A stretch of DNA of 64,000 bases from an uncultured delta proteobacterium (lineage in GTDB: Bacteria; Desulfobacterota; Desulfobacteria; Desulfobacterales; SG8-13), in the NCBI GenBank assembly GCA_963848135.1, contig CAWKCK010000017.1:995507-1059506 (forward strand), given 5' to 3'. The position numbers are program-made. Of this stretch, positions 27,001-36,000 are shown in pieces (the stretch's first letter is position 1; each line of letters opens with the position of its first letter).

Positions 27001-30000
27001 TAGAAAAGATTTGCTTCAGGGTACGGAAGGCAAAACTTATTAAATGATGAAATTTTATATTTTTGTTATTTTGCAATATTTGAATTGATCAAACCTATCA
27101 AATCGCAGAATGTTGGTGATTGGCAAATCATAGCTTCATCTGCGATGCAATTCCTGGCGGTTGGTTTACTGGCAAGAAAACATTAGCCGGATACAACTCA
27201 CAGTACTGATATGATATCACTACCCTCACGGAATTCCTCCCGACCACAATATGCTGCAGTACCCTGAATCAAACCTCATTCAAGCTATTGGCAAGCAGCA
27301 CAATAACCAATATTGTCGCTCCGAATATACCTTTTGACTCAGGATTTATACTCCTTTTTATCTAAACCGTGTTTGATTGCCAGCCTGCTAAATTGCCTTG
27401 TTGTGATTTTGGCTTCTTTGGCTGAGGTTTTGATTTTTCCATTGTGTTTTTTCAACAGTTTGGCAAGGTATGTACGTTCAAATTCATCGATGGCAATTTG
27501 TCTGGCCTCTGAGAGAGGCAGATCCTTTGCGCAATCAATCACCTCCATGCATAGCGAGCCAATGACCAATGTCTCTGGAAAACTCTCTTGTTTAAGTGTG
27601 TCGCCAGATCCAAGAATACAAGCCCGTTCCAATACGTTCTCCAGTTCCCTTACATTTCCGGGCCAACTATAAGATTGCAGCGCCTCAAAAAGTCCATGTT
27701 GCAGCCTGTCAAAATTTTTTCCATATTTCTTATTCAACTTTCCTAAACATCGATTGATCAAATGGGGTAGGTCTTCCAAGCGCTTTCTCAGTGGAGGTAG
27801 TTCTATCGGAAATACATTCAATCGGTAGTACAGGTCATTTCGGAAATTGCCTGACGCCACCAATTGTTGCAAATCAATGTTGGTTGCGGCGATGATCCGG
27901 GTGTTGGTTTGTAGTTGTTCCGTGCCCCCAATGCGGTCGAAGGTACCATCCTGCAATACGTGTAACAATTTGACTTGCATGGCCGGACTGATTGTCCCAA
28001 TTTCGTCGAGGAAAAGCGTACCGTTATGTGCCGTCTCGAATTTACCTATTTTTCTGCGTTCAGCACCGGTAAAAGCTCCCTTTTCATGGCCAAATAATTC
28101 GCTTTCTACAAGCGTTTCAGGAATGGCACCGCAATGGACCGAGACAAATGGTCCTTCCGATCGATGGCTGTGTCGGTGAATCAACTTTGCCATCAATCCT
28201 TTGCCGGTTCCTGTTTCACCTAAAAGCAGGACCGTGGCTATGGTAGGGGCAACACTGCGAACTTGCCGCAAAATGTATAACATATTAAGATTATTTGTAT
28301 GGACGATGTCCAGCCATTCCGATTTCCAGAATTTATCCCGCAAATATTCTAATTCCAGTTTATTAGACAGCCTTTGTCGGACAGCCTCAAGAACCAAATC
28401 GATCTCATCCCCAACGATTGGGTATATGAGATGATCGTCGGCTCCCTGCCTAACGGCTTTAATAGCTCTCCTGACCATATTTTTTGGGGATAGTACAACC
28501 AACTGCACCTGTGGATTGAGACTTCTGAAATGATTGGTGATTTTTTTAAAAAAGTCTGAAAAATTTTCACTTTTCAGGGTGACATCGAGAAAGACTATAT
28601 CAAAGGGGTTGTCAGGAGGATCGACAGCGGTAGAAGGATCAGGAGCAATGCGCACGTTAGCCGTTTCACTGACCTTGGTTTTAATTAGTTCACAGACATC
28701 GACGTCATTGCAGAAAATCAGAACATCTTTCATTTTTTAAACCGTATTATTGATTCACATGGATATTTTTGCAGCGTTGAGTATTAAACTATTAATCTCC
28801 ATTACTTAAGTCCAAGTACCTCAAAATTAATGATTTATCAATAAATTCATTTGGAAAATGAGAAGGATGATTTAACGAGGAAGGAAGTATTTGCTAAGGA
28901 TATATTTTATCTGCATTGCTTATCGAATCTGAACAATCGAATCGAAAACCTTTAACATAAATAATTATCCCATTTGTTGTATTTTCAATTATACCATCTA
29001 CAATAACCTTCTTATGAACAATTTGTCTCAATCTTATACCCATAAGATCATCGGCGATCCGATACCTCCTTTCATCATATCCAGCTATTTCCACCGCAGA
29101 TACTTCGCCATTTTTCCCCCAGTCAGCAGCAATGACAATGCCTTTTAAAGTGATTGGAGTTTGTTTTTCCATCAAGTCACACCAATTGGTTTGGTAAAAG
29201 GATTACACCCCATAAAACCCAACCTTTCAGCAAACATCATGCCCGATTCAAACCTATGCAGCTTGATTTGTCATTTATTTGTAACCGTTTTGCCAGAAGA
29301 AGGATTCTTAAGGATCGGGGAGGGGGTGTTTGAGGATACCATCGTCAGTCCAGAAATTACCCGCGACCCCGTTTAACCGAAATGCGGCGAGAGAGCGTCA
29401 GCTAAAGTCGCTAACCATTCGGTCAGGATCAATCGATTAATATCATCATAGAATGAAATCTGAATTGGGTGGGTATAATTACAAAACTCGATTTGAGAAC
29501 CAATTTCAGCAACCCGTAAACGGACATTTCGTGTCAAAATGCAAAACCGAAATCGGACATCTCATATCGCATTTTTCGTTGAAATGGTGCCCCTTAAAGA
29601 CAACCGAAGATAATTAGAAACGCATTTTATTCAAAATATCGCTGCAAAGGAATAAAATTTAGAAAATATCCTAAAATTCTAAATACTTATAGGGCAACCA
29701 ATTAATAGCATCGATTTTGGCTCGTTGTTTGCTAACTTCTGCTCAATAAACGCCGGGCAATACAATGAACCTGAACGGCAAAGTATTGATCGGACGAGAC
29801 GGCAAACTTCTCAAATTTATGGACATCATTCCATGGCGAACAACGGCACCTATACCCGAAGCGAGACCGCTACCGGCAAACCTTTATTCGGCAAACTGGA
29901 TCGTCGGCTTCAAATTGGACTGTTAACGGCCTTCTTCATCCCAATGGCGGTGTTGTCCGCCTATTTCCATTTTCAGTTTCAACACACCTTAACCGCCATC

Positions 30001-33000: not shown

Positions 33001-36000
33001 GATCCTGCTGGTTTTCCTTTGGAGCTTCTATTCTGATAGTTTTGGTATGGGGGGTCCAGTCCTGCTCTGTCTGGTCTTGATGAACATCCTGGGAATTCTA
33101 CGCTGGAAAGATATCAACAACATTCATTGGGATGTGGTAGCTCTTTATGCCGCCGCCAGCGCAATGGGCTACGGGTTAGCGACCACGGGTGCTGCTTTAT
33201 GGTTAGCCTCCGGCTTTCTTGCCGTGATGCCGGACTTTTTAACTTCTGGTATAGGATTAGGAATCTCCACCAGTTTGTTAACCGGCATTCTGACCAATTT
33301 CATGAGCGACGGCGCAACCGTGGCAGTCGTCGGGCCCATAACCGTACCTATGGCAACCCTGTCGGGGACTTCGCCAATACTCGTGGGCCTGGCCACGGCG
33401 TTTGCCTCTTCCTTTGCACATGTATTGATCATCGGCACACCCAACAACGCTATCGTGTTCAGCCTTGCCAAGGACCCGGAGACCGGCGAACAATTGTTAA
33501 CCATGAAAGATTTTTTCGTGCACGGCCTGGCGGTTCTTGTCCTAAGCCTGCTCATATTGTGGGTGTGGACTTTTTTTGGATACTGGAAATGGATGGGCTT
33601 TAGTTAAAATCGGTCAGATTGACGGTGGCAACGCACAGAATACCTATCACTTTTAAACTGTTACTTATTAGGAGGTTTCAATGAACCCGGACAAGATAAA
33701 CTTGATGATTGTTGACGATGAAGAAGATTTCCTGAATGCGATTCGCCGCAGTTTGGAAATTAGGGATTTTCATGTCATCACAGCCAACAGGGGTGAAAAA
33801 GCCCTTGAAATCGCCAAATCTAACCCAGTGGATATAGCCATTGTAGACCTGAAAATGCCCGGAATGAATGGCCTGGAAACTCTGGAAGCCTTAAAAAAGG
33901 CTCATCCATGGATGGAAATCATCATATTGACCGGCCACGGCACCATAGATTCGGCCGTAGAAGCCACGCAAAGTGGTGCTTACTCTTATTTGCAAAAACC
34001 CTGTGAGTTAGATACTTTGATGCAAATGTTAATCAAAGCTTATAAGAAACGTGTCATGAATAAGCAGCAGTTAGCAAAAAAAAAGATGGACGAGCTTCTC
34101 AAAATTTCTCAAGGTCGCTCCGCTCGTGAAATACTTTCGCGGCTTAGAGAAATCGATCGAAAGGGGTAATCGAGGATAAATATCCCGATATACTGGTGAC
34201 CGGAACCAAGGGACAGTCGAATTCAGTGGATACCCTTATTGAGGATCGTAAACCCAATAGATGCTCCGACGCAGTCCAACTTTTGTAATTAGTATCCGGA
34301 AAGACCGGATAAAAGAATGGCTCAGCTTGAAAACGTTACTAAGCATTTGAATTACGATGACAGGAAATTTTTTTACCTGTAATCCTGAACCAGCTGATAT
34401 CCCGGTCAAGGTGAAAAAGCACATACAAACTGATGAGTGAGATTCCTTCATTAACATACTATGTTCGATTGCGACGTGCATGGGAATTCTGTTGCCCGAA
34501 TGTTTATCACATGGTGTTAGAGGCTGGTAAATCATAGATTCTCAAGGCAAGTTGTGAACTCAGATTCTCTTTTATAGGCATAGTGGTTGGCAGATCAACA
34601 AGCATGTTGATCTTGGAAAAATACATCTTAAAGAATATAAAGCTGGACTATACTTCACGTTTTATAAAACGCGTGATACCCTGCTGATTCATAAAAATAG
34701 AAAAATGGCCAACCACAACATAAGATGGTTGGCCTATATTATTATGATAAGGTCGATGTATCGTGGGAAAAACTGACATGGTGAAATTCGAGTTTGCTGC
34801 TATGATATTTGAGCTATCATCTGGTCGATTCGTTTGAGATAGCCAGAACGTATCGTTTAAGATGGTGTGATTTCCTATAGTTGATTTATGGCAAGCTGTT
34901 CTGAGTATTGACCTCTCCAATAATATCCATCGGAAACTGCCCGACACCATATCTGCCCCCTTCGGGCAGATATGGTTTTGTATTGGCGATTTTATGAATA
35001 TTTAAATCCTTATTGACGCTTCTTTACGACCGTTGATCCTTTGATTCACACCTTTGTAAAGTCGCACGATCATTGGTGATCAATGCCTGATGTCAGCAAT
35101 TGTACCTGCATCTGTTTGCCAAATTCACACCAGTCGTTTATATTTGTGAAACGTTTTCATCCACAATTTTGGGAACACCCTATCAGTAAAGGGAAAATAT
35201 ATTATGAACCCGCAGGATTGGTTAACCGGCTTTATAGCCAACAAGTTGTTGAGCACAACGATTTTGATTGTCGCCGTTCTGATGATCCGAAAATATGTCG
35301 TTCATTGGATTAAGGGCAAAGAGACGTTTCTTCCGACATTCAAACGGCAGTGGATCGTGAGTGTCCGCAATATAACCATCTTTCTGATATTCGGAATAAT
35401 GGTTGTGGTATGGCTGGAGCAGTTGCGTACCATTGCCGCCTCCATTGTAGTCATTGCCGCAGCAATCGTCATTGCTACAAAAGAGTTTTTGCTGAATGTG
35501 GTTGGTTTTTTTTATCGCACAACGGCCAAGTTCGTGAGCGTCGGCGACCGCATTGAAGTGGATGGCATTCGGGGAGACGTGATTGACCAGAGTTTAATGG
35601 GCATCACGCTGCTGGAGATCGGCCCCGGAGATAAGACCCATCAATACACCGGACTTTCTATTTTCTTGCCTAATAGCCTGTTTCTCTCTGAGACCGTAAA
35701 AAATGAGACGTTTTTATGGAGTGATTAAGTCTTCCATTTGATGACTATTTCGATCAAGGCTGACGAGCAATGGTCAAAAGCTGAGGATGCCTTTCTGCAA
35801 GCCGCAAGGGATGTCAGCGCCCCTTACCTTGATAAAGCGCGGCAGGTTATGAAGACACAGGCACTGCAGCAAAACCTCGAGGAACCGAGTGTCGAACCTC
35901 GCGTACAGATCCAGATCGCCGACCCTGAGAAATACCATCTGGTCTTACGGGTACCTGTTCCGGCGCGCAAACGAGCCCGACTGGAGCAGGATATAACTCG

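Follow-up and report, generated by a model that had tools for sequence, protein, structure and literature searches.

Can a sensor histidine kinase act on a secondary carrier directly, through a receiver domain that is part of the carrier itself? The question is raised by a locus in a 64,000-nucleotide stretch of DNA from an uncultured delta proteobacterium of the order Desulfobacterales (the window), in which a kinase gene is followed by a gene for a receiver domain fused to a DASS-type carrier body and by a gene for a free receiver.

Organization of the locus

The three genes lie on the same strand (Table 1) as a closely linked operon. The initial annotation had reported their order, with a 14-nt overlap between the stop of the kinase gene and the start of the fusion gene, as well as Response_reg at aa 15-124 and Na_sulph_symp at aa 240-686 of the fusion protein, and a DD pair in LIDDEE with the acceptor Asp in ILDQKMPGMDG. 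The ORF coordinates (overlap at 31541-31554), the Pfam analysis and the translation, respectively, bear out these descriptions. The receiver scored 88 bits with PF00072 (cut-off 30.2), and the translation contains the active-site residues D19, D20, D63, T91 and K113, with the D63 codon at 31727-31729.

The kinase was recognized from its HATPase_c (92.8 bits) and HisKA (38.4 bits) domains, and its translation displays an H-box (HEINNP), an N-box and G-boxes. Its membrane helices were placed by hydropathy, and the match of the outer domain to dCache_1 is weak (30.5 bits, below the Pfam cut-off of 45). The free receiver matched Response_reg only (106 bits). In a relative that is approximately 96% identical, contigs from an RNA library span both gene junctions, which is weak evidence since DNA carry-over is possible.

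Table 1. Features of the kinase, fusion and free receiver locus, in window coordinates
Feature	Position	Strand	Basis or remarks
Sigma-54 activator, 464 aa, degenerate receiver	27339..28733	-	Pfam; divergent from the module
Sigma-54-like promoter element TGGCTCGTTGTTTGCT	29718..29733	+	About 100 nt 5' of the kinase ATG
Sensor histidine kinase gene	29833..31554	+	ORF 29725..31554, likely ATG at 29833
Sensor histidine kinase parts	29833..31554	+	Two membrane helices around a Cache-like outer domain, then HisKA, HATPase_c
Receiver-carrier fusion gene, 688 aa	31541..33607	+	ORF, Pfam, NCBIfam
Receiver domain, aa 15-124	31583..31912	+	Pfam Response_reg
Conserved linker, aa 125-158	31913..32014	+	End of helix 5, HEIP motif, short helix
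First membrane helix, aa 159-180	32015..32080	+	Hydropathy; regarded as equivalent to DASS TM1
Hydrophilic loop, aa 181-245 (65 aa)	32081..32275	+	Conserved GY..Y..M motif; hydropathy
DASS-fold carrier core, aa 246-686	32276..33598	+	Pfam, alignments to VcINDY and NaCT
Free single-domain receiver gene, 162 aa	33681..34169	+	ORF, Pfam

The carrier body

The carrier body had been described as that of a complete DASS symporter. This holds for its length, as the match to Na_sulph_symp (PF00939; 132.8 bits, cut-off 27) runs from position 22 to 470 of the 472 profile positions. It does not hold for its signature: the NCBIfam DASS model TIGR00785 scored 156.5 bits, which is under its cut-off of 198.6, and alignments to VcINDY and NaCT showed that the SNT motifs at the hairpin tips, which bind Na+ and substrate in DASS carriers, are both absent, with S352-E353-H354 and S589-D590-G591 in their places. 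A match to the Pfam family CitMHS was also obtained (108.9 bits). The SEH and SDG replacements are themselves conserved, in 75 of 80 cross-phylum loci. Other conserved carrier residues are R408-N409 and T633-P634-N635-N636; the site residues are strongly conserved in a set of 141 fused proteins, with R408 kept in 140, N409 in all and D590 in 139. According to the consulted part of a study of NaS1 (PMC11584011), the SNT motifs are vital for transport. With both of them replaced, ordinary DASS-type transport by the fusion carrier cannot be assumed, and we classify the carrier, from its sequence, as a divergent DASS-fold protein that lacks the SNT motifs.

The DASS-fold assignment and the membrane topology are predictions. 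The alignment of VcINDY chain 9n5n begins at residue 41-45, which corresponds to aa 246-251 of the fusion protein, so that the first approximately 40 residues of VcINDY, which we take to hold TM1, are without an aligned counterpart. Unfused sister carriers match the fusion protein from aa ~157 onwards. The loop at aa 181-245 is predicted to face outward. The substrate is possibly sulfate, a label that goes back to database names and to expression data on relatives cited in the part of PMC5840216 that was consulted.

Distribution and gene neighbourhood

The arrangement of kinase, fused carrier and free receiver is widespread, and its genes occur together across phyla. The initial annotation had considered the fusion rare (2 of 30 genomes), a view that we can refute: a set of 200 further genomes from the order contains 18 full-length copies, and PF00072 and PF00939 occur together in all of the 120 best listed protein clusters at 90% identity. 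Of the top 80 loci from species-representative genomes, 71 are fused, and these are labelled as coming from at least 13 phyla; family members occur in many phyla other than those of sulfate reducers. Of 14 loci within the order, 13 have a window-type kinase next to the fused gene and 13 have a free receiver of the window type. The kinase gene lies 5' of the fused gene in 48 of the 61 cross-phylum loci with enough flanking sequence, and an upstream kinase is combined with a downstream free receiver in 41 of 59.

The receiver-carrier fusion arose independently at least twice. When the state of the N-terminal domain is mapped onto a phylogeny of the carrier region, at least four changes are needed. 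Furthermore, a second fused family of approximately 590 aa occurs in Ignavibacteria and Kapabacteria, on a different DASS subfamily and with the gene order fused carrier, free receiver, kinase. The sensor domain of its kinase resembles that of the window kinase (145-180 bits). The same three components also occur together when they are not fused. Carrier, kinase and receiver genes are found side by side in 13 of 15 sister loci with unfused paralogues, likewise in Desulfovibrio-type loci, and in two further loci of the same genome, here accompanied by CBS, receiver-CBS and CLC channel genes.

Proposed mechanism and alternatives

Based on these comparisons, we think it probable, with modest confidence, that phosphorylation of the receiver directly controls an elevator-type anion carrier, possibly one for sulfate. 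The Cache-like outer domain of the kinase would sense a small solute, which may be sulfate or an oxyanion akin to it, and the kinase would autophosphorylate and hand its phosphoryl group on to D63 in the receiver, which is fused to the cytoplasmic N-terminus of what would be a dimeric, elevator-type anion carrier. Phosphorylation of D63 would alter the helix4-strand5-helix5 face of the receiver, and the signal would reach the carrier through the conserved linker into TM1, by docking on the cytoplasmic face, or both. Transport activity would then change within seconds, without new gene expression. The kinase would also phosphorylate D56 of the free receiver, which would provide a phosphate sink or an additional output. 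We infer both the phosphotransfer and its effect on transport, which might be to turn it on or off.

In another reading, which we regard as unlikely, the carrier is a co-sensor or transceptor. Its occupancy or flux would set the gain or loss of phosphate by the fused receiver, which would serve as a flux-regulated sink or as feedback to the kinase, and the true output would pass through the free receiver, its tail, the CBS proteins or the sigma-54 activators. Transporters do act as co-sensors of kinases, as DctA or DcuB with DcuS. The loss of the SNT motifs is consistent with such a role, and so are several features of the neighbourhood. The free receiver follows the fused gene directly on its 3' side in 54 of the 69 loci with enough flanking sequence. 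Its residues D12, D13, D56, T84 and K106 are invariant in 13 of 13 sequences, in which a C-terminal tail of approximately 40 aa is also conserved. Being commoner than any fixed kinase position, the free receiver could be the real signal carrier. In all five scanned loci of other phyla, CBS-pair genes are located between the kinase and the fused gene, and CBS genes are present in the other two loci of this genome and in related loci. No CBS-pair gene lies beside the three genes in the window, where the nearest CBS domains are in MgtE (36129-37439, Pfam).

Sigma-54 elements are also found close by. The activator encoded next to the module matched Sigma54_activat (228.5 bits) and AAA_lid_14; its receiver scored only 24.2 bits with Response_reg, under the cut-off of 30.2, and has neither the acidic pair nor the conserved Lys. 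This activator is best treated as context and possibly represents a transcriptional layer. The promoter-like element TGGCTCGTTGTTTGCT has one mismatch to TGGCAC-N5-TTGC, and the pattern showed no excess over shuffled sequences when counted across the whole window. In 7 of 13 orthologous loci, the motif TGG[CT]A[CT]-N5-TTGCT lies 5' of the kinase gene or of a small receiver gene, and sigma-54 activator genes adjoin several related modules in addition to that of the window. Thus, transcription is regulated too, and could be the main output. However, DNA-binding domains are absent from all response regulators that were scanned inside the modules: these are single receivers, receiver-CBS and receiver-kinase proteins, and the receivers on sigma-54 activators are encoded alongside the modules. 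Several observations count against the carrier as a co-sensor. A receiver normally accepts a signal, and its placement N-terminally of an effector is the standard layout of a regulator. Conservation at the putative substrate site is as strong as in working carriers, a finding that suits transport no less than sensing, and the unfused sister carriers share their motifs with the fused ones and have the lengths of complete carriers.

Rather improbable, in our judgement, is a role of the receiver in dimerization, membrane localization, the formation of a complex with the kinase or carrier turnover, as opposed to the transport cycle. The initial annotation had raised a role in oligomerization alone. 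Phosphorylated receivers commonly dimerize, and the solved DASS entries that match the fusion protein are dimers, so that two receivers would sit close together. The linker speaks against this role, since it is conserved and leads straight into TM1, which suggests mechanical coupling rather than a loose tether. Its mean column identity is 0.60, as compared to 0.67 for the receiver (71 proteins), and R159 and P160 of the NARPG motif, which straddles the boundary to the first membrane helix, are kept in 140 of 141 fused proteins. In addition, the relative P0131 has a universal-stress-protein domain in the place of the receiver, a swap that fits a general regulatory module at the N-terminus.

Two divergent relatives have degenerate receivers, with NCETK (P0128) and ESDTK (P0129) at the active-site positions, which implies that phosphorylation is dispensable in some lineages; nevertheless, it is highly improbable that the receiver is a relic without a signalling role on a constitutive carrier, given that 138 of 141 fused proteins and 69 of the 80 best cross-phylum loci, from many phyla, retain the quintet DDDTK, that the kinase gene overlaps the start of the fusion gene, and that the fusion arose repeatedly. 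One more of the 80 loci has DQDTK, and in the remaining 10 the longest ORF, being truncated or unfused, does not include the receiver.

The independent fusions, the conserved linker, the genes that travel together and the lack of DNA-binding outputs strengthen the case for an action of the receiver on the carrier. More tentatively, the family may represent a widespread class of two-component systems with a secondary transporter as the output. A phosphorylated receiver, fused or free, would gate an elevator-type anion carrier in this class, and the free receiver and CBS proteins would provide a sink and a second, metabolic input. We consider this a serious possibility.

Comparison with known systems

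The type of gene cluster that surrounds the module is already published for sulfate reducers: the parts of PMC11887813 that were consulted describe clusters of DASS-type sulfate transporter genes from Desulfosarcina variabilis 3be13 and 25 other sulfate reducers, and propose sulfate as the sensed effector. The kinds of genes found in these clusters are those of the locus studied here, with DASS-type carriers, several kinases with N-terminal Cache domains and response regulators, and two further loci in this genome are of the same type. The published clusters also hold CBS-domain proteins, none of which adjoins the three genes of the window. The model proposed there is transcriptional, with regulators of the "WalR type", whereas no DNA-binding regulator was present inside the modules at the loci scanned here. 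No mention of a receiver-carrier fusion was found in section 14 and the consulted legend passages of PMC11887813, or by a text search of one supplement.

Among characterized carriers, VcINDY (4f35), NaCT, NaDC1 and NaS1 are homologous to the window protein over the whole carrier body, with profile E-values of 2.8e-40 for NaCT, 3.8e-39 for VcINDY and 1.9e-33 for NaS1. The window protein differs from these canonical DASS carriers in having SEH instead of the first SNT, and SDG instead of the second motif, which is SNT in VcINDY and SNV in NaCT. It also has an Arg before the conserved Asn in a loop (GGRN), an extra outer loop of approximately 65 aa after TM1, and the extra receiver and linker.

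Two-component systems are known from textbooks for controlling transcription, and some of their outputs are enzymatic or involve protein binding. We know of no studied case with a secondary transporter as the output domain, and literature searches found neither such a case for a two-component receiver nor experimental work on any member of this family. If phosphorylation gates the carrier, this would be a new class of two-component output. Structural work on elevator-type carriers would gain a defined, switchable regulatory handle, and sulfate reducers a missing fast switch for sulfate uptake, with which those of marine sediments could adjust the uptake of their main electron acceptor more rapidly than by way of gene expression. 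With its large size, strong conservation and a single Asp to mutate, the family lends itself to testing.

Signalling proteins that act directly on transporters are known, as GlnK on AmtB and EIIA-Glc on LacY. These pairs resemble the proposed system in that a cytoplasmic protein, set by covalent modification, controls a carrier post-translationally; GlnK and EIIA-Glc are separate proteins of other families, however, and neither is a two-component receiver. The SLC5/STAC kinases CbrA and CrbS, as described in the part of PMC9100948 that was consulted, combine secondary-transporter and two-component domains on one polypeptide, as here. Their direction is the reverse, with the transporter-like domain as the input of the kinase and transcription as the output, whereas the window protein has its input in the receiver and its presumed output in the carrier.

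By analogy, the closest functional precedent for the proposed mode of control is provided by the low-affinity phosphate transporters Pho87, Pho90 and Pho91 of yeast, in which a large regulatory domain at the N-terminus, on the cytoplasmic side, precedes a DASS-like body, as in the fusion protein. PHO90 (structure 8r33) is eukaryotic and distant from the fusion protein (E 4.8e-17). The regulatory domain of the yeast carriers is an SPX domain, which responds to inositol pyrophosphates or partner proteins, and not a phospho-receiver fed by a kinase. According to the consulted part of PMC4238866, this SPX domain permits negative regulation of transport.

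A receiver-carrier fusion within a three-gene module

Analysis of ORFs, Pfam matches and translated sequences confirmed that a receiver is fused to a DASS-fold carrier and that the fused gene lies between genes for a histidine kinase and a free receiver. The three genes are arranged head to tail on the forward strand in the order kinase, fusion and free receiver. The start of the fusion gene overlaps the kinase stop by 14 nt, and a spacer of 73 nt separates the fusion gene from the free receiver gene. The initial annotation, which had described the receiver-carrier architecture, the gene order, the overlap and the receiver residues, was thus correct in all of these details.

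Features of the window and of related loci (aa, residues of the gene product; L numbers, loci)
Feature	Position	Strand	Evidence or content
MocR/PdxR-like regulator	25448-26968	+	GntR helix-turn-helix and aminotransferase-fold domain; lies upstream with no evident connection to the module
Sigma-54 activator, divergent	27339-28733	-	N-terminal receiver degenerate, 24.2 bits
Three ORFs (putative genes) flanking the operon, 93-100 aa	28894-29175, 34236-34535, 34648-34950	-	No Pfam hit with E ≤ 1
Sigma-54-like element	29718-29733		Pattern search; upstream of kinase gene
Histidine kinase gene	ORF 29725..31554, likely ATG 29833	+	ORF and Pfam
Kinase, dCache_1			Pfam, 30.5 bits, below the cut-off of 45
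Kinase, HisKA			Pfam, 38.4 bits
Kinase, HATPase_c			Pfam, 92.8 bits
Fusion gene, 688 aa	31541..33607	+	ORF and Pfam
Fusion, Response_reg	aa 15-124		Pfam, 88 bits (cut-off 30.2)
Fusion, linker	aa 125-158		End of helix 5, conserved HEIP motif, short helix
Fusion, hydrophobic helix	aa 159-180		Hydropathy
Fusion, hydrophilic stretch, ~65 aa	Between helix and carrier body
Fusion, Na_sulph_symp	aa 240-686		Pfam, 132.8 bits (cut-off 27)
Fusion, CitMHS			Pfam, 108.9 bits
Free single-domain receiver gene, 162 aa	33681..34169	+	ORF and Pfam; Response_reg only, 106 bits
ORF, 174 aa	35204-35728	+	Sole match: beta-domain of mechanosensitive channels, 25.2 bits
ORF, 106 aa	35738-36058	+	No family; 9 nt after the 174-aa ORF
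MgtE magnesium transporter	36129-37439		After the 174-aa and 106-aa ORFs
Unfused locus, same genome (L008)	G000:C5:321000-334000	+	Cache kinase, 2 single receivers, 528-aa DASS/CitMHS carrier, receiver-kinase, receiver, CBS protein, DUF3124
Unfused locus, same genome (L007)	G000:C3:1089000-1104000	-	CBS protein, 533-aa carrier, receiver-CBS, CLC channel with CBS, 2 receivers; then Cache domain and kinase core as separate ORFs, receiver
CBS-pair gene (L259, L276, L242, L265, L281)	~3850-4530 in each		Labels: Ignavibacteriota, Acidobacteriota, Zixibacteria, Fibrobacterota, Gemmatimonadota
Kinase upstream of fused gene	L039, 2792-4870; L046, 8316-10367		Orthologous loci; extra receiver N-terminal to the sensor domain
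TauE/SafE-family ("sulfite exporter" family) gene	L041, 12088-13389		End of locus

Downstream of the module, the 174-aa and 106-aa ORFs may represent a short or split MscS-like gene.

Receiver, linker and topology of the fusion

The fused receiver carries the residues D19, D20, D63, T91 and K113, corresponding to the acidic pair, the acceptor Asp, the Thr/Ser and the Lys of receivers. This quintet (DDDTK) was intact in 138 of 141 fused proteins; P0128 (NCETK), P0129 (ESDTK) and P0171 (DDDSK) deviate from it. The receivers of P0128 and P0129, both divergent fused relatives, are degenerate; the acidic pair is gone in both, and the acceptor Asp is replaced by Glu in P0128. Among the best 80 cross-phylum loci, DDDTK was found in 69 and DQDTK in one more, while the longest ORF had no receiver part in 10.

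The linker leads into a NARPG motif with which the next segment begins; R159 and P160 are retained in 140 of 141 fused proteins. Mean column identity in 71 proteins was 0.60 for the linker, 0.67 for the receiver and 0.72 for the carrier, which places the linker close to the receiver in conservation. The part alignable with solved DASS carriers begins at about aa 246. Because the full-length VcINDY chain, of which TM1 presumably lies within the first 40 residues, aligns to the fusion only from residue 41-45, we take the hydrophobic helix to correspond to DASS TM1 and the hydrophilic stretch after it to be an outward-facing insertion, a topology that would keep the receiver in the cytoplasm. Related carriers without an N-terminal receiver (unfused sister carriers, ~550 aa) match the fusion from aa ~157 on with 42-46% identity; receiver and linker are thus added ahead of a carrier that is complete by itself.

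The carrier body compared with canonical DASS proteins

The profile of the fusion family matched NaCT (E 2.8e-40), VcINDY (3.8e-39), NaS1 (1.9e-33) and yeast PHO90 (4.8e-17), and these matches firmly establish the carrier body as a homolog of DASS-fold proteins. Three features set it apart from the canonical family. The score of the fusion against the NCBIfam DASS model was 156.5, below the cut-off of 198.6. Where canonical DASS carriers have two Ser-Asn-Thr motifs, the window carrier has SEH at the first aligned site and SDG at the second, and the loop Pro ahead of the conserved Asn is replaced by Arg (GGRN). S352, E353, H354, R408, N409 and D590 are each retained in 135 to 141 of 141 fused proteins, and the combination SEH/SDG/RN was found in 75 of the best 80 cross-phylum loci. 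SDH, ADG and GGARN are found instead in a 617-aa carrier type from the same clusters. In our reading of these features, the window carrier type forms a subfamily of its own within the DASS fold. Further residues distinguish carriers of the fused clade from those of the unfused clade.

The "sulfate" label of this carrier type derives from literature on sulfate reducers. Clusters that were looked up by name were either unnamed or called "sodium-dependent dicarboxylate transporter 2/3/5". In the passages of Marietou et al. on these carriers (PMC5840216), DASS clade C takes in such proteins, with lengths of 474 to 691 aa in group Cii, and work is cited in which expression in Desulfobacterium autotrophicum shifts with the sulfate level.

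Distribution of the fusion and gene neighborhood

The fusion had been described as rare in the initial annotation, an assessment contradicted by the counts at the level of clusters, order, phylum and across phyla. PF00072 and PF00939 were present together in all of the best 120 clusters (90% identity) of 2030 matches among 8000 scored candidates, at 67-99% identity. A full-length fused copy was identified in 18 of 200 other genomes of the Desulfobacterales, and a few further genomes of the order contained fused copies broken off at contig ends. Of 400 genomes sampled from the phylum, five from outside the order contained a fused copy and another contained a fragment. In species-representative genomes, there were at least 598 pattern matches, of which at least 176 were confirmed relatives, and receiver and carrier were in one frame in 71 of the best 80 loci. 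By the submitters' own phylum labels, which can be wrong for metagenome bins, these 80 loci belong to Thermodesulfobacteriota (23), Zixibacteria (9), Myxococcota, Ignavibacteriota, Planctomycetota and Acidobacteriota (6 each), Gemmatimonadota (4), Pseudomonadota (2) and five more phyla (1 each), with 13 unlabelled; an isolate, Desulfatitalea alkaliphila M08but, contributes one of them. In the ESM Atlas, clusters of the same architecture had 107, 59 and 92 members.

The gene neighborhood is also recurrent. Of 14 loci retrieved from the order, 13 have a kinase with the window-type sensor next to the fused gene (12 directly upstream, one divergent), and 13 have a free receiver of the window type. 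Among the 71 fused cross-phylum loci, a kinase was located within 1300 nt upstream in 48 of 61 loci with enough flank, a free receiver directly downstream in 54 of 69, and both in 41 of 59; these counts are lower bounds, some loci being lost to frameshifts and score thresholds. The free receivers have a quintet of their own in 13 of 13 cases and a conserved C-terminal tail of ~40 aa.

In all five loci scanned from outside the Desulfobacterota, the kinase gene is separated from the fused gene by one for a CBS-pair protein of ~184-213 aa. The resulting four-gene operon occurs in many loci outside this phylum; the window module has no CBS-pair gene. The response regulators scanned inside modules were single receivers, receiver-CBS or receiver-kinase proteins, none with a DNA-binding output, and receiver-bearing sigma-54 activators are encoded beside some modules. 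Yip1-domain membrane proteins are recurrent between modules (L049, L052 and L054).

Repeated origin of the fusion and unfused relatives

A maximum likelihood tree was built on the carrier part with a quick search under LG+G4; of its 77 rows, 36 make up the main fused clade, which formed one group (SH-aLRT 100). P0128 and P0131 were placed in the unfused sister clade and P0171 far from the main fused clade. The tree requires at least four changes of the N-terminal state, with some placements unsure due to long branches, and indicates that the receiver-carrier fusion arose more than once. In P0131, a metagenomic representative of 692 aa with the same carrier type, a universal-stress-protein domain (Usp, 44.3 bits) is located where the receiver would be, which suggests that the regulatory module at the N-terminus can be exchanged.

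P0171 represents a separate family: of the best 120 clusters listed, 40 carry a receiver, with names that come from Ignavibacteria, Kapabacteria and the Bacteroidetes/Chlorobi group. In its carrier body, this family shares 54-62% identity with unfused "sodium/sulfate symporters" of ~470-520 aa in Desulfovibrio and relatives, which have separate genes for carrier, receiver and kinase. The operon order of the P0171 type is fused carrier, free receiver and kinase, and the kinase sensor resembles that of the window kinase (145-180 bits in 8 loci). For the unfused sister carriers, the order was carrier, kinase and receiver in 13 of 15 loci. The window's genome itself contains two more loci, both unfused, which encode Cache kinases, a number of single receivers, receiver-CBS and CBS proteins and a CLC channel. 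Its fourth DASS-like gene (L004) has no two-component neighbor within ~1.5 kb.

Transcription and expression

Sequence features indicate that a transcriptional layer exists alongside the module. The receiver of the divergent sigma-54 activator has neither the acidic pair nor the conserved Lys and is probably a pseudo-receiver. The sigma-54 pattern is not enriched over the whole window (70 matches, as compared to a shuffle mean of 66.8), and the element upstream of the kinase gene is noteworthy only because of its site and its recurrence: in 7 of 13 orthologous loci, such elements lie upstream of the kinase gene or of a small receiver gene that comes before it. Counts from a scan for terminators and promoters did not rise above chance. 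The strongest hairpin in the scan (34946-34976) is located ~780 nt past the free receiver gene and does not mark the operon end.

Contigs from a metatranscriptome run were ~96% identical to the window, one over 30460-32004 and another over 32689-34191, and together they bridge both gene junctions of the module. As contigs are no proof of a single transcript and RNA libraries may contain DNA, the bridging is weak evidence for expression of the module; window stretches without RNA contig cover carry no meaning.

Proposed function and comparison with known systems

Evidence for a working receiver that is coupled to the carrier comes from the intact quintet, the conserved linker, the recurrent gene order, the regulators without DNA-binding output among those scanned, the repeated fusion, the unfused modules and the conserved free receiver family. 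We slightly favor, as the most likely mechanism, a model in which the phosphorylation state of the fused receiver would directly control the presumed anion carrier, and the free receiver would serve as a sink or second output. The main alternative, that the carrier domain acts as a co-sensor and modulates signalling, seems rather unlikely.

A full-text search retrieved no paper on receiver-transporter fusions, although several response-regulator censuses lay outside the search and may hold an earlier mention. There was no passage on such fusions in the archaeal census (PMC5847659) or the 2005 census (PMC1183210) of response regulators, and the words receiver, two-component, histidine kinase and fused do not occur in the main text of PMC5840216. 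The closest description, for Desulfobacteraceae, is in PMC11887813, where section 14 and the figure 5 legend place DASS-type sulfate transporters together with many two-component systems and CBS proteins, covering 26 species. Cache-domain kinases are proposed there as sulfate sensors, the regulators are named "WalR type", and sensing is modeled to lead to the formation of uptake systems; the figure 5 legend mentions a "putative protein-protein interaction". Section 14, the legend passages and a text supplement do not mention a fused receiver, which the figures may show.

A parallel is provided by yeast PHO90, whose carrier body matches the profile of the fusion family but whose regulatory N-terminal domain is SPX instead of a receiver. 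According to the passage on PHO90 in PMC4238866, this SPX domain permits negative regulation of transport. By analogy, PHO90 shows that the N-terminal control logic proposed here can work on the DASS fold.
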